From the sequence record KX130862: a stretch of 64,000 bases of DNA; one strand, given 5' to 3'. Position numbers and translations under genes: made by a program. Positions 423-9,642 of this stretch are shown here, in pieces. The stretch comes from Shigella phage SHFML-26. Position 1 is the stretch's first letter. Each line of letters starts with the position of its first letter. The notes below the pieces were generated by a model. It made no database searches, was not told the DNA's origin, and worked only from the letters and a program-made list of their open reading frames with translations.

Positions 423-2010
<1,588 letters not shown>

Positions 2011-2037
2011 AATAAAATGGGCCTTGCGGCCCACTCC

Positions 2038-2540
2038 TTAAAAGTATTTTTTAAAACTCATCATAACTTTATCATCAACATCATTATCAATCTGTGCAAC
2101 AAGGTAAGATGACAATTCTACTTCTTGTGGCGCAGATTGAACATTATCAGAATTAAGATATTCACGAATCCAAGGATATGGATGTTTAACCGGAGCATCG
2201 GTAATTGGGCATGGAAGACCACACTGCTTCATACGAGATACAGTTAAGTAATCAATAAAGCTCCACATGCTATTTGTATTTAATCCAGGAACATCTCCAT
2301 CTTTAAATAAATGAACTGCCCAATCTTTTTCTTGGCGGTTAACTTCCATGAAAATATCAACTGCTTCTTGTTCACACTCTTGAGCAATTTTAACCCATTC
2401 ATCGCCATCAGTACCAGATTGAAGTTGACGAATAATATATTGGGTGCCTTTAAGGTGAAGCTGCTCATCACGCGCAATGAACTTCATAATCTTAGCATTA
2501 CCTTCCATGATTTCCATATTCTTATGGAAGTTAAAGGTAC
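2038..2540 (-). CDS. nrdB: ribonucleotide reductase small subunit NrdB, exon 2
   Basis: MEIMEGNAKIMKFIARDEQLHLKGTQ... RNR beta C-terminal half; joins exon 1 in frame (676+503 nt = 393 codons). Confidence 0.85.
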
Positions 2541-3630
2541 CGTATGTTCGATTGAGCTCGCTAATTCTCAACCCGTTCTCTTATGAACTGCTGCATGTTA
2601 CCATGCAGTCCAGACTATATCACAATCCCGGAGGGATTCTCCCCATTTCGAGTCGCTTGACCCTACGTCCGAAGACTAGTCGTTGAACCTTGTTTTGCAA
2701 TTGTCGCCGTGCCATCGTTTATATGTTGATGGTGATAAATCTTTCTTATCACAATATGGACAATTCAATTGAATTCTATTTGGATTTAATTTACATCTGT
2801 CATTATGTTTTAGATAAAATCCAGGACCTTTACCAATGTGACCACAGAAATCACATGTGATTTCTTTTTGTGCAGGATGGGTCCCGTTCTTAACCATTTC
2901 TAATGTTTTTGCTGATGTTCTTTTCTTATGGTCTTCTGATAAGAAATGATGTGAACCGTCATTTACCCGTTTTGATTGAGTTTCTGACTGCATTTTACCA
3001 CCGCAAAATACATGAGTACCTTCTTTTATAGCTGCAATATTGCGTTCTTTAACTTTTGCAATATGCTCAGCTTGTTGAAAATTATGTATACCTAATGCAG
3101 CTCTATTTAAATTAGATTTACGCTGTATTTCACCATCTAAAAGATGAAATGTACCATTTTCTATCTTAGATTTAATAGAGGCAATATTTTTAGCTCGTAC
3201 TTCAGGGATATTAAAAATCTGGATTTCTCTAGATTTTGCGGCTTTAGAAGCTAATTCAGAAATTTCTTCAGGAGAATATTTCATTCTAAGCTTTATAGCA
3301 TGACAAGCCTGGTAATCTTTTTGAGCTAAATGTATATCATAATGTTCCTGTATAGAAAGGCACATCAAATTATCTAAATCATTATTTTCACGGTTACCGT
3401 CTTTATGATGGATTTCGTATGTTCTTCCATCAGAATCTTTAGGTATAGGTCCGTTAGCATCTATCCAAATTTTTCTATAGTTCAATTGTGCATCCTCTTA
3501 AAAGTATAATCATATTTATATTATACTAATTAAAGGTGCAAGCAAAACCTTGGCTGCTAGTTTTCCTATAAAGGACTTTCCAGCAATTAAAGGAGTTTTC
3601 GATAAACGTTACCGTTTAAAGGCGCATTTT
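2541..3630 (-). mobile_element. group I self-splicing intron in nrdB (about 1090 nt) carrying I-TevIII
   Basis: Exon 1 ends on U, intron ends on G; 3' core (approx 2571-2690) resembles the td intron 3' core at 8081-8225; contains an HNH endonuclease ORF. Confidence 0.8.
2676..3485 (-). CDS. I-TevIII: HNH homing endonuclease I-TevIII, full length (269 aa)
   Basis: Intron-encoded ORF with HHKDGNRENNDLDNLMCLSIQEHYDIH HNH motif and C-terminal Cys-rich zinc-finger-like region. Confidence 0.85.
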   Translation of the reverse strand: MNYRKIWIDANGPIPKDSDGRTYEIHHKDGNRENNDLDNLMCLSIQEHYDIHLAQKDYQACHAIKLRMKYSPEEISELASKAAKSREIQIFNIPEVRAKNIASIKSKIENGTFHLLDGEIQRKSNLNRAALGIHNFQQAEHIAKVKERNIAAIKEGTHVFCGGKMQSETQSKRVNDGSHHFLSEDHKKRTSAKTLEMVKNGTHPAQKEITCDFCGHIGKGPGFYLKHNDRCKLNPNRIQLNCPYCDKKDLSPSTYKRWHGDNCKTRFND

Positions 3631-4306
3631 ACGCAAAAGATACATAAAAACGAATTGCTTCTAAGGCATTAATAACGTGCAAACAGAGGTAAAGAGATTT
3701 CATTAAAGCACGTTTAGCTTCGGCTTCTTGTTTAATAGCTCGGTTTAAACGAAAATCGGCATCAGGAGATTCTTTAGCTAGTTCTACAAATTCTTTAGCA
3801 TTTTCCCATTCACGGGTTTTAATCAGAACGTCATCATAATAGCGTCCAATGGATTCAGCACGTTTCATAATAGCTTCATCTAATACAATCTCATCAAATA
3901 CCTTTGACGGATCAGTATAAAGATTTCGCATGATATGTGTATATGAACGGCTGTGAATAGTTTCACTAAAAGTCCATGTAGCAACCCATGTATCAAGACT
4001 CGGGTCTGAAATTAATGACATAAGTACAGCAGACGGCGCACGACCCTGAATGCTATCTAAAAGTGATTGATACTTCAGGTTGTTAGTAAAAATATTTTGC
4101 TGGTACTGAGGAAGCTTATTAAATTGTGCAGCATCCATCATCAAGTTTACTTCTTCAGGACGCCAAAAAAATGATAAAGATTTCTCAATAAGTTCTTCAA
4201 ATACTCTATGTCGTTGAATATCATATCGAGCTAAACCCAATCCAGAACCAAAAAACATCGGCTCAGTCAAAATATTAACAGGGGATGTATTAAAAACTGT
4301 ACTCAT
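3631..4306 (-). CDS. nrdB: ribonucleotide reductase small subunit NrdB, exon 1
   Basis: MSTVFNTSPVNILTEPMFFGSGLGLARYDIQRHRVFEEL... ending ...RFYVSFA then T of the split Cys codon; track ORF stop TAA lies in the intron. Confidence 0.85.
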
Positions 4307-4944
4307 TTAGAATCCTTAAATTTACATTTATCATAATGCCATCTTAAAGCATTGCCTTTATTAACTTTCTTGCCACAATGCGGACAAGGCGGATACTCTG
4401 TACCTTGCTTAGTTCTCAAAGAAATCAAATCACGGGTTTCTTTAGTATGAGGAACATCTCTTGTCGGAGAGATTGTACCATACATCGGATTAAGCACGCC
4501 GACTTTAGCAGCAGCTATATTCTTTTTAGCTTCTTCGGTTTTAGGTTTTCTCATGCGAGCTAAATGCTCTTTGGTAAATTTCCTTCCTTTAAGGGCTCTA
4601 CTTATCTTTTCTCTGGTTTCCATAGAAACTTCACGTCCTATAGCAGCTTCAGATAAACGTCGTCTACCTAATTCGTACAGTTGAGAAGAAATTTTATATG
4701 AGCGATTTTTACCAGTCAAGCACATTAAACCAAAAGCTTTCTTTAATCCTGGGGTGTCATATATTTTACATAAAAGCCAATGAGCTATAAAATGCTCTCT
4801 ACCTGTTAATTCAACTAAATTTTCTTTATCATCAGAACCTCCCATACATCTAGGGATTATATGATGTGTCTCTTTATATTCGGATAAAGGTTCCCGAGCC
4901 TGAGCTCGGGAAATTAGGTCATTATAGATTTTTTGATAATTCAT
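4303..4944 (-). CDS. mobE: freestanding HNH homing endonuclease
   Basis: 213 aa with ETHHIIPRCMGGSDDKENLVELTGREHFIAHW HNH motif and C-terminal CPHCGKK zinc ribbon; located between nrdA and nrdB. Confidence 0.65.
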   Translation of the reverse strand: MNYQKIYNDLISRAQAREPLSEYKETHHIIPRCMGGSDDKENLVELTGREHFIAHWLLCKIYDTPGLKKAFGLMCLTGKNRSYKISSQLYELGRRRLSEAAIGREVSMETREKISRALKGRKFTKEHLARMRKPKTEEAKKNIAAAKVGVLNPMYGTISPTRDVPHTKETRDLISLRTKQGTEYPPCPHCGKKVNKGNALRWHYDKCKFKDSK

Positions 4945-7208
4945 TACAATTTACACGCTGCACAATCGTCGGCTTTAGGAGTTTCTATTTCATAATCATC
5001 AGTACCAGAACCATCACGGGTATTATGATAATAGAAATTTTTAATGCCATAATACCATCCGTATAGCATGTCATCAATCATTATTGACATTGGAACCTTG
5101 CCTTTAGGGAAGATTTGGGGGTCATAGTATGTATTCGCCGAAGCTGATTGACAAACCCATTTCAGCATAATAGCTACCTGCGTAAGATAAGGTTTATTAC
5201 CTTTCTTAGCTAATTTCCATGTATAATCATATAGGTCTATGTTATGCTCAATATTGGGCACGACTTGATTAAAGGAGCCCTCTTTTGATTCTTTAACAGA
5301 GACTGGTCCACGTGGAGGCTCGATACCGTTTGTACTGTTAGAAACTTGGGAAGATGACTCACATGGCATAAGTGCTGATAATGTGCTATTACGGATGCCA
5401 AAGAGCTTAAGGTCTTCCCGCAGCGACGACCAGTCACAAACGTATTTTGGAGCTGCGATTTGGTCAATCTTTTTATTGTACCAGTCGATAGGTAATTCGC
5501 CTCGAGACCAACGAGTGTCTGAATAATATTCGCAAGGTCCTTTTTCTTTGGCGAGCTTAATGGATGCTTTAATGAGTCCATACTGTAATCTCTCAAATAG
5601 TTCATGTGTTAAATCGTTAGCATCTTCATAAGAAGCAAAGTTACTTGCCAACCAAGCTGCATAGTTGGTAACACCTACACCAAGGTTACGACGCTTTTTA
5701 GCTTTTTCTGCTTCAGGAACTGGATATCCTTGGTAATCCAACAGATTATCAAGAGCACGAACTTGAACTTCTGCCAATTCATTAATTTTATCTTGGTCTT
5801 GCCAGTCAAAATTATCTAGTACGAATGCAGAGAGAGTACACAATCCAATTTCAGCATCAGGACTATTCACATCATTTGTTGGAATAGCAATTTCACAGCA
5901 CAAGTTACTCTGACGAATAGGTGCCTTTTCACGAATAAACGGAGTATAGTTATTCGTATTATCAATGAACTGTACATAAATTCTTGCTGTTCCTGAGCGT
6001 TCAGTCATGAGCAATTCAAATAGTTCACGGGCTTTAATACGCTTTTTACGAATATTAGGGACTTTTTCTGCTGCTTCGCATAATTCACGGAAACGGCTTT
6101 GGTCTTTAAAATAAGAATAATAAAGCTCGCCACCCATTTAATGTGGACTGAACAAAGTAATGTAATCGTTCTTTCCGAATCGTTCCATCATCAAATCATT
6201 CAGTTGAACACCATAATCCATATGACGAATGCGGTTTTCTTCTACGCCTTTGTTATTTTTCAAAACGAGAAGATTTTCAACTTCCAAATGCCAAATAGGA
6301 TAATAAGCAGTAGCAGCGCCGCCACGAATTCCGCCCTGTGAACATGAGTTAACTGCAGCCTGAAAATGTTTCCAAAAAGGAATAACACCAGGATGGCATA
6401 CATCACCCATGCCAATCTCAGAACCTTCGGCACGAATCATACCAACGTTAATACCAATTCCAGCGCGTTTAGAGATATATTCAACAATTGAAGCGGAAGC
6501 CTTATTGATAGACTTCAATGAATCACCTGCCTCAATAACAACACATGAACTAAACTGTCGAGTCGGAGTACGGCAACCAGCCATAATAGGAGTTGGCAAT
6601 GAAATCTGTCGAGTAGATACTGCTTCATAAAAACGGATAACATGTTTTAATCTATCAACAGGTTCATCTTGATGCAATGCCATTCCAATAGTCATAAATG
6701 CAAACTGCGGAGTTTCATAAATTTGACCGGTGGTTTTATCTTTGACTAGATATTTTTCTTTTAATTGCATCGCTCCGGAATAAGTAAATTCCATATCCCG
6801 CTCGTGCTTAATTTTTGATTCTAAAAATGTAATTTCTTCCGCAGAATATTTTGACAATAATTCAGGGTCATATTTACCTTCATTTACACAGTAAGAAATA
6901 TGGTCAATAAATGAACGTGGTTCATACTGCCCATAAACATGCTTACGAAGAGCAAACATTAAACAGCGTGCAGCTACATATTGATAATCAGGTTCTTCAA
7001 CCGAAATAGAATTCGCAGCAGCCTTAATGACAATAGTCTGAATATCATCAGTTGTCATTCCATCACGGAGATAAGATTTAATATTTTCATATAATTCATA
7101 AGGATCTACTGATGTTCCTTCAGCTGCCCAAGATAAAACTTTAATAATTTTTTGTGGGTCAAAGCTCTGAGAAACACCACTACTTTTGATAACATTAATT
7201 AATTGCAT
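4944..7208 (-). pseudogene. nrdA: ribonucleotide reductase large subunit NrdA, reading frame interrupted by in-frame TAA at 6138..6140
   Basis: Track ORFs 6138..7208 (356 aa, ...LFSPH*) and 4944..6137 (397 aa, MGGELYYSYF...) are one RNR alpha frame split by a single stop codon; 356+1+397 = 754 codons. Confidence 0.85.
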
Positions 7209-7765: not shown

Positions 7766-8077
7766 TTACACCGCCATTTTTCCTTTCAAGACGCCGTGGG
7801 ACTGATAATCTTTGAGAACGAAATCTTTAGGCCTGAGTTTAAGAATGTATTCCAATTGTTCTTTAGTAGAAAGATAGCGGAATTTATAAGGCAATCCGCC
7901 TATTACCAGTTCACAAAGCTCTTTAGGTTCACGACGTAAAATTTCTTTACATTGTTCTACGTGATTCATATAGATATGAGTATTACCACCGGAAAATATC
8001 AAATCTCCCGGAATAAGATTACACATCTTAGCTACAATATGAACTAACGTAGCATATGATGCAATATTAAATGGTAG
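7766..8077 (-). CDS. td: thymidylate synthase, exon 2
   Basis: LPFNIASYATLVHIVAKMCNL... TS C-terminal part; exon1+exon2 = 286 aa as in T4 TS. Confidence 0.9.
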   Translation of the reverse strand, partial: LPFNIASYATLVHIVAKMCNLIPGDLIFSGGNTHIYMNHVEQCKEILRREPKELCELVIGGLPYKFRYLSTKEQLEYILKLRPKDFVLKDYQSHGVLKGKMAV

Positions 8078-9093
8078 CATTATGTTCAGATAAGGTCGTT
8101 AATCTTACCCCGGAATTATATCCAGCTGCATGTCACCATGCAGATCAGACTATATCTCCAACTTGTTAAAGCAAGTTGTCTATCGTTTCGAGTCACTTGA
8201 CCCTACTCCCCAAAGGGATAGTCGTTAGGCATTTATGTAGAACCAATTCCATTTATCAGATTTTACACGATAAGTAACTAATCCAGACGAAATTTTAAAA
8301 TGTCTAGCTGCATCTGCTGCACAATCAAAAATAACCCCATCACATGAAATCTTTTTAATATTACTAGGCTTTTTACCTTTCATCTTTTCTGATATTTTAG
8401 ATTTAGTTATGTCTGAATGCTTATGATTAAAGAATGAATTATTTTCACCTGAACGATTTCTGCATTTACTACAAGTATAAGCAGAAGTTTGTATGCGAAC
8501 ACCGCACTTACAAAACTTATGGGTTTCTGGATTCCAACGCCCGTTTTTACTTCCGGGTTTACTGTAAAGAGCTTTCCGACCATCAGGTCCAAGTTTAAGC
8601 ATCTTAGCTTTAACAGTTTCAGAACGTTTCTTAATAATTTCTTCTTTTAATGGATGCGTAGAACATGTATCACCAAACGTTGCATCAGCAATATTGTATC
8701 CATTAATTTTAGAATTAAGCTCTTTAATCCAAAAATTTTCTCGTTCAATAATCAAATCTTTCTCATATGGAATTTCTTCCAAAATAGAACATTCAAACAC
8801 ATTACCATGTTTGTTAAAAGACCTCTGAAGCTTTATAGAAGAATGGCATCCTTTTTCTAAATCTTTAAAATGCCTCTTCCATCTCTTTTCAAAATCTTTA
8901 GCACTTCCTACATATACTTTATTGTTTAAAGTATTTTTAATCTGATAAATTCCGCTTTTCATAAATACCTCTTTAAATATAGAAGTATTTATTAAAGGGC
9001 AGTCCTACAATTTAGCACGGGATTGTCTACTAGAGAGGTTCCCCGTTTAGATAGATTACAAGTATAAGTCACCTTATACTCAGGCCTCAATTA
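8078..9093 (-). mobile_element. td group I self-splicing intron (1016 nt) carrying I-TevI
   Basis: Intron begins UAAUUGAGGCCUGAGUAUAAGGUGACUUAUAC... right after exon 1 GGU and ends ...CUGAACAUAAUG; matches the T4 td intron as recalled. Confidence 0.9.
8225..8962 (-). CDS. I-TevI: GIY-YIG homing endonuclease I-TevI (245 aa)
   Basis: MKSGIYQIKNTLNNKVYVGSAKDFEKRWKRH... GIY-YIG N-terminal domain, Zn finger and C-terminal DNA-binding region; inside the td intron. Confidence 0.9.
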   Translation of the reverse strand: MKSGIYQIKNTLNNKVYVGSAKDFEKRWKRHFKDLEKGCHSSIKLQRSFNKHGNVFECSILEEIPYEKDLIIERENFWIKELNSKINGYNIADATFGDTCSTHPLKEEIIKKRSETVKAKMLKLGPDGRKALYSKPGSKNGRWNPETHKFCKCGVRIQTSAYTCSKCRNRSGENNSFFNHKHSDITKSKISEKMKGKKPSNIKKISCDGVIFDCAADAARHFKISSGLVTYRVKSDKWNWFYINA

Positions 9094-9641
9094 ACCCAAG
9101 AAAACATCTACTGATCGTTGATACCACTGAAGGTCAAGGTATCCATTACGCACATTAAACTGATAGAACATATGACAAGGCGGTAATGCCATATATTTAA
9201 GTTCAGCTGGATTCCATGCTGAAACAATTTGACGCCTATCATTTGGCAGTTTTTTAATACGATCAATAACTTCTATAATTTGGTCTACACCGCCAAAATC
9301 GCGCCATTGTTTTCCATAAATTGGACCAAGTTCACCGCTATGGTATCCTAAATCTTTTGCTTGATTTTCGTAATTTTCATCCCAGACTGTTTTGCCTTGG
9401 ATTAACGAATCATGCTGAATTAATCGTAAATCATTGACATTTGTGCTTCCCGATAAAAACCATATTAGCTCAGCAATGCAAGCTTTCCAGGCGAGCTTCT
9501 TAGTTGTTACTGCAGGAAAACCTTTAGTTAAATCCCAGCGTAATTTAGTACCGAACAAAGCAATTGTTCCTGTGCCTGTTCGGTCATCGGTTTCGTAGCC
9601 ATTTTCCAGGATATCTTTAATTAAAAATTGGTATTGTTTCA

Positions 9642-9642
<1 letters not shown>
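9094..9642 (-). CDS. td: thymidylate synthase, exon 1
   Basis: MKQYQFLIKDILENGYETDDRTGTGTIALFG... ends ...VDVFLG immediately before the intron. Confidence 0.9.

Follow-up and report, generated by a model that had tools for sequence, protein, structure and literature searches.

The window analysed here is a 64,000-nt stretch of Shigella phage SHFML-26 (KX130862). Its first 10 kb has a T4-type gene order in which all genes lie on the minus strand: rnlA (1583..423), denA (2034..1600), nrdB, a mobE-type gene (4944..4303), nrdA (7208..4944) and td. The features described below are likewise on the minus strand. The nrdB gene is interrupted. Exon 1 (3631..4306, 676 nt) starts with an ATG at 4306 and exon 2 (2038..2540) consists of 503 nt including the stop codon. 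The 1090 nt between them (2541..3630) were assigned to a group I intron of the IA2 type, with P7.1 and P7.2. The intron contains an open reading frame for the homing endonuclease I-TevIII (2676..3485). Between nrdA and nrdB there is a mobE gene of the T6 type, which codes for a free-standing HNH endonuclease.

Splice boundaries and ribozyme fold

The splice boundaries were set using the annotated T4 splice as a guide. For exon 1 the T4 join gave the junction, which agrees with the intronless T2 and T6 genes. Exon 2 was defined by its open reading frame and the junction alignment, and the intron by its splice boundaries, by comparison with T4 and RB3 and by folding evidence. Exon 1 ends with ...TTTGCGT at 3631 and the intron begins with AAAATGCGCC at 3630, its RNA starting with AAAAUGCGCC. 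At the other end, the intron finishes with ...ACATACG at 2541, the G of ...ACAUACG being the 3' terminus of the RNA, and GTACCTTT opens exon 2 at 2540. Without splicing, the reading frame from the ATG at 4306 meets a stop shortly after ...FYVSFA; coding sequence for the C-terminal part of NrdB picks up again near 2540. Once joined, the exons (676 + 503 nt) form one reading frame for a 392-aa NrdB with no internal stops. The peptide across the junction, SFA-C-TFNF, is that of T4's curated join, and the spliced DNA is collinear with the contiguous nrdB genes of T2 (MH751506) and T6 (MH550421), with no indel at the junction. An earlier note on this DNA had proposed an nrdB intron of about 1090 nt at 2541-3630. 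Those coordinates proved exact, and intron removal restores the NrdB reading frame.

Fourteen helices were written out for the intron, namely P1, P2, P3, P4, P5, P6, P6a, P7 (a pseudoknot), P7.1, P7.2, P8, P9, P9.1 and P9.2. The 5' half of the ribozyme core (3532..3630) holds the 3' strand of P1, which is the guide sequence, followed by P2 with a GUAA loop, the 5' strand of P3, P4, P5, and the 5' strands of P6 and P6a. The 3' half (2541..2704) holds P6a', P6', P7, P7.1, P7.2, P3', P8, P7', P9, P9.1, P9.2 and the terminal G with which the intron ends. In P1 the exon sequence ...GCGU pairs with intron GCGC (positions 6-9). The last U of exon 1 supplies the U of the wobble pair in P1 (U-1.G6), and this pair is invariant in the 10 variants compared. 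The helices that mark subgroup IA2 were both found, P7.1 as GUC-UUCG-GAC and P7.2 as GGGUC-AAGC-GACUC, and P7.2 shows one compensatory change (U-A to C-G) in DCP80. A P10 pairing was searched for by eye, and nothing was seen beyond a possible 2 bp.

The fold was evaluated on an alignment of 10 cores from which the ORF had been removed (the window, RB3, T4, PD112, DCP80, UTK0003, HY03, FL44, ESh36 and AV114). The helices comprise 72 pairs, and 719/719 cells of the alignment contain standard pairs. Compensatory changes on both sides were found at 8 pairs, located in P2, P5, P7.2, P9 and P9.2, a number reached by 0/500 shuffles. When the 3' partners were slid by 1-3 columns as a register control, pairing was 34-44% and compensatory pairs numbered 0. 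In the 5' half, all pairs are standard in the 10 variants, the compensatory changes fall in P2 and P5, and the Rfam alignments of ORF-less homologues agree. Every pair of the core from P3 to P8, including the P3/P7 pseudoknot, can form in 10/10 variants. P3, P4, P6, P7 and P8 are invariant among these 10 closely related variants, for which covariation is uninformative, and the pairing proposed for them is supported by how well ORF-less relatives fit the Rfam model. The fold from P1 to P9, which the earlier note had proposed to check, is supported by 72 pairs and 8 compensatory changes.

An Rfam scan of the whole window at the gathering threshold produced no matches, because the 785-nt ORF insertion in P6a splits the core. 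We considered whether this meant that no intron is present and rejected the idea. A permissive search gave a partial match to the group I model RF00028 at 35.6 bits, covering the 3' half only, against a gathering threshold of 50 bits. Natural copies of the intron that have no ORF, in PD112 and DCP80, matched RF00028 at 68.6 and 74.1 bits, above the same threshold, and their aligned core differs from that of the window by a handful of positions. The core consensus, J8/7 included, was also recognised, and GUUCAACGACUA and GAUAUAGUCU could both be aligned with the model. The td intron in this window likewise had no Rfam match at the gathering threshold. Self-splicing has been described for the nrdB introns of T4 and RB3 (PMC2790892, PMC1865063).

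One polymorphism lies beside P1, at exon position -2 (window 3632). Intron-bearing alleles read GCG-T, with the G pairing with C in P1, while T2 reads GCA-T and T6 reads GCT-T. The difference is silent in NrdB and may have arisen through co-conversion or have been selected for pairing in P1.

The I-TevIII gene and its control region

The I-TevIII ORF (2676..3485) encodes 269 aa followed by a TAG stop and was identified by its open frame, by Pfam and PHROGs matches and by comparison with RB3. It begins with TTG, the start annotated for I-TevIII in the RB3 record, and has an AAGAGGA Shine-Dalgarno sequence upstream. No frameshifts or stops were found within it. The last 29 nt (2676-2704, including the TAG) overlap P6a', P6' and the 5' strand of P7.

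Residues 4-48 of the protein matched Pfam HNH_3 with 48.7 bits, well over the cut-off of 24.8, and the full length matched PHROG 12324, annotated 'intron-like DNA endonuclease' (640 bits). The H-N-H catalytic motif (H26, H27, N39, H48) is encoded at 3342..3410, as judged by comparison with the RB3 enzyme. Two zinc fingers of the form CX2CX12-13HX3C (aa 211-231 and 242-263; 2697..2855) make up the DNA-binding and dimerisation region. The earlier note had reported a 269-aa HNH endonuclease with an intact motif and a zinc-finger-like C-terminus, and this description holds for the motif and for both fingers. A Pfam FlgM match at residues 74-114 (26.6 bits) was set aside, being helical, of low complexity and unsupported by its context. 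When I-TevIII was searched against the sequences of solved structures, nothing meaningful was returned, the best hit being an unrelated deaminase (E = 0.48).

The RB3 enzyme has been purified and characterised; its cleavage sites were mapped and it acts as a dimer (PMC1865063). The substitutions H26A, H27A, N39A and H48A each abolished cleavage, and the double mutants C211A/C214A and C242A/C245A lost zinc and DNA binding (PMC1865063). The 8/8 residues shown by mutation to be required (H26, H27, N39, H48, C211, C214, C242 and C245) are all kept in the window. The two proteins are identical at 266/269 positions, the changes being D23Y, V129A and A265T. Y23 is also found in the 89%-identical I-TevIII of Salmonella phage UTK0003, and the T265 codon has the T4 sequence. 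From these comparisons Y23 and T265 look like ordinary polymorphisms. A129 is found neither in RB3 nor in the Salmonella-phage copy. We considered whether D23Y might disable the HNH motif and rejected this, given Y23 in the Salmonella-phage copy and in five records with identical intron DNA.

Upstream of the ORF, in the P6a loop, a hairpin (3489..3540) pairs the Shine-Dalgarno GAGG (3494-3497). Its predicted stability is -17.9 kcal/mol (z -3.7), and 0/200 shuffles were equally stable. At the top of the hairpin is TATAAATA (3513-3520), which is the consensus of T4 late promoters. [quoted passage not shown]

Relatives of the intron and its likely mobility

The intron and its endonuclease have already been described, and the element is known in identical form in public records. 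The exact I-TevIII protein is present in NCBI and UniRef as YP_009277600.1 and YP_009278950.1 (Shigella phages SHFML-11 and SHFML-26). Over all 1090 nt the intron DNA is 100% identical in five phage records, two of SHFML-11 and one each of vB_Eco_BCPEco_001, vB_Shso_BCPShso_001 and vB_Sen_BCPSen_003. The phages with identical introns, SHFML-11 among them, differ in the flanking genome (∼97% over 25 kb), and SHFML-11 has no mobE between nrdA and nrdB, unlike the window. Over 25 kb, the best match to the genome of the window was PV654517.1 (98.6%), and no record was identical.

The RB3 nrdB intron and I-TevIII were reportedly treated by Eddy and Gold in 1991 (cited in PMC2988022). RB3 (X59078, AY262130, KM606994) has the same nrdB insertion site and a 269-aa HNH and double-zinc-finger protein (Robbins et al. 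2007, PMC1865063), and its ORF likewise lies in the P6a loop with the 3' end overlapping P6' and P7. The intron DNA is 99.0% identical to that of RB3, RB5, RB6, RB7, RB9 and RB10. Compared with RB3 there are 11 substitutions and one 1-nt indel. In and around P9 the window has T4 bases and not RB3 bases, a change that is compensatory (G-C versus A-U).

The T4 nrdB intron (598 nt) uses the same splice sites. Its retained parts are ∼99.5% identical to the window, and its 3' core is the same base for base. It corresponds to the window intron minus 491 nt (positions 210-700; 2931..3421 in the window) and minus one A at position 64. With the deletion the HNH motif is lost and the frame shifts; what is left is a 97-aa out-of-frame remnant that is annotated as defective, and the T4 copy is not self-mobile (PMC2790892). 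Alignment of intron and ORF to T4 and RB3 thus bore out two points of the earlier note, that the T4 intron ORF is truncated and inactive and that full-length I-TevIII is known from RB3-type phages.

A further form has no ORF. In vB_vPM_PD112, BYEP01 and DCP80 the nrdB intron is only ∼301-306 nt long (L004 1501-1801 in PD112; L005 1501-1806 in DCP80), with the ribozyme core and insertion site seen in the window. These introns lack exactly positions 142-926, a segment flanked at the start and end of the ORF by the direct repeat ACAATTG, and they keep the late promoter, hairpin and Shine-Dalgarno sequence. Because of the repeat at the boundaries and the retained control elements, the ORF-less introns look like deletion derivatives of the full-length intron and not its ancestors.

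At least 80% of the full-length intron was present in 83 phage records, and an uninterrupted full-length I-TevIII was encoded in 86. A probe spanning the spliced junction matched 550/827 records with a recognisable nrdB, with at least 80% of the probe length in one place, and most of the matches listed were in a single piece. Therefore the intronless allele is the majority form of nrdB. Roughly one nrdB-bearing record in ten has the full-length intron. The earlier note had set the phage apart from T4, T2 and T6, which is accurate, since T4 has the deleted form and nrdB of T2 and T6 is uninterrupted. The full-length intron does not make the phage unusual, given the 83 records that hold this form and the five that are 100% identical.

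Taken together, 3630..2541 is almost certainly an RB3-type full-length T-even nrdB group I intron with an intact I-TevIII gene in its P6a loop. By analogy with the T4 and RB3 introns, the pre-mRNA would fold into the P1-P9.2 ribozyme and self-splice, the RNA being cut after the U of the U.G wobble in P1 and ligated after the terminal G. Splicing would restore the 392-aa NrdB; the fold and the frame are found in the window, and catalysis would be expected from the self-splicing T4 and RB3 homologues. On early transcripts the I-TevIII ORF would be silenced by the hairpin that pairs its Shine-Dalgarno sequence; this hairpin and the late-promoter motif are both present here. I-TevIII would be made late, from the promoter inside the hairpin, if the timing follows published T4 work. 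An I-TevIII dimer would bind the intronless nrdB of a co-infecting phage through the two C-terminal zinc fingers, and recombinational repair would copy the intron into the broken nrdB allele, as suggested by RB3 biochemistry and by conservation of the required residues. The phage's own nrdB would be immune because the intron interrupts the I-TevIII target.

The sequence requirements for each step of homing are intact, and activity of this allele would be expected by comparison with RB3. Homing of the RB3 intron has been demonstrated experimentally, and the residues needed for cleavage and DNA binding are kept in the window (PMC1865063). The earlier note's phrase 'potentially mobile' is a fair reading of these facts. 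Mobility may be only modest because RB3 I-TevIII is itself weak and labile, with low specific activity, low DNA affinity and ∼4% homing (PMC1865063). The T4 td intron, which encodes I-TevI, and the nrdD intron, which encodes I-TevII, are likewise group IA2 introns whose homing endonucleases are under late-promoter and hairpin control. I-TevI and I-TevII are GIY-YIG monomers in other host genes, in contrast to I-TevIII, an HNH dimer (PMC2988022).

Two other explanations were weighed. In one, this I-TevIII allele is dead or too weak, and the intron persists or spreads only by hitch-hiking on gene conversion triggered by MobE. A T6-type mobE does lie directly upstream of nrdB (4944..4303), and MobE-driven trans-homing of the defective T4 intron has been documented (PMC2790892). 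Also in its favour, the RB3 enzyme has low specific activity and DNA affinity (PMC1865063), three substitutions separate the window protein from the enzyme tested, and Y23 sits three residues before H26. We consider this explanation unlikely. The ORF is open and full length with all experimentally required residues in place, and Y23 and T265, shared with a divergent Salmonella-phage copy and with T4 respectively, have the look of ordinary polymorphism. The 86 records with an uninterrupted I-TevIII argue for ongoing selection on the ORF, and phages without mobE, such as SHFML-11, carry identical introns. Because a T6-type mobE is just upstream of nrdB, trans-homing by MobE would be available here as a secondary route, which is not exclusive of self-homing by I-TevIII.

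The other explanation dispenses with splicing altogether: nrdB would have been fragmented by insertion of a free-standing endonuclease gene, and the two NrdB pieces would be translated separately. It takes its support from the many deposited records in which 'nrdB' is split over two CDSs, separated by a 'hypothetical protein'. We find it barely credible in view of the complete group I fold with compensatory changes, the ORF-less relatives that score above the Rfam threshold, the canonical boundaries (an exon-end U in the U.G pair and a terminal G in the intron) and the exact restoration of a frame equal to that of intronless alleles. Furthermore, the curated records of T4 and RB3 annotate a join. 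The preferred reading, a spliced intron with an intact endonuclease gene, agrees with both the open I-TevIII ORF and the restored NrdB frame.

The value of this result is mainly in correct annotation. The element is a mobile group I intron of the textbook kind. In sister phages, automatic annotation mostly gives two 'nrdB' fragments and a 'hypothetical protein'; the correct form is a single spliced nrdB, join(4306..3631, 2540..2038) on the minus strand, whose intron contains the I-TevIII gene. Tequatrovirus genomes can also be typed conveniently by the state of this intron, which may be full-length, deleted as in T4, ORF-less or absent.

Neighbouring mobE, td and nrdA genes

The mobE-type gene (4303..4944) encodes 213 aa and differs from T6 MobE by one residue. 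Its product resembles the MobE proteins of T4 (141 aa) and RB3 (243 aa) in the first ∼60 aa (HNH) only, with no relationship in the C-terminal parts. A NUMOD3 motif is present, as is a C-terminal CPHCGKKVNKGNALRWHYDKC finger that is identical to the second zinc finger of I-TevIII at 13/28 positions. The td gene (7766..9642) also contains a group I intron, with an open 245-aa I-TevI ORF at 8225-8962, and over 1.88 kb the region shares 96.4% identity with T4 td.

In nrdA, codon 357 (6140..6138, minus strand) is an in-frame ochre TAA. At this codon GAA (Glu) is found in RB3, in T4 and in PV654517.1, the closest relative. The TAA stands directly before the ATG of Met358 (TAAATG), and ORFs of 356 and 397 aa result. 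For the 201-nt stretch around the stop, 0/459 matching phage records exceeded 98.0% identity, so the stop is private to this genome, where it reflects either a genuine nonsense mutation or an error in sequencing. A split nrdA like that of Aeh1 was considered and rejected; the Aeh1 gene is split between the equivalents of Cys439 and Cys462 and needs special tails (PMC3045599), whereas here there is a single GAA-to-TAA change at codon 357, a different site.

If the stop is real, the large subunit of the aerobic ribonucleotide reductase would be non-functional or produced in two pieces through re-initiation, in a phage whose nrdB hosts an intact mobile intron and adjoins mobE. One could go on to suppose that nrdB is under little or no selection and that the operon serves mainly as a carrier of two selfish endonucleases, though we regard this whole reading as unlikely. 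Shortly upstream of the stop, nrdA codons 264-287 (window 6300-6420) contain a cluster of six amino acid differences from both RB3 and T4 (K264E, E269D, R271C, T273P, T284A and K287N), a pattern that would fit either a mosaic segment or a relaxation of constraint on the gene.
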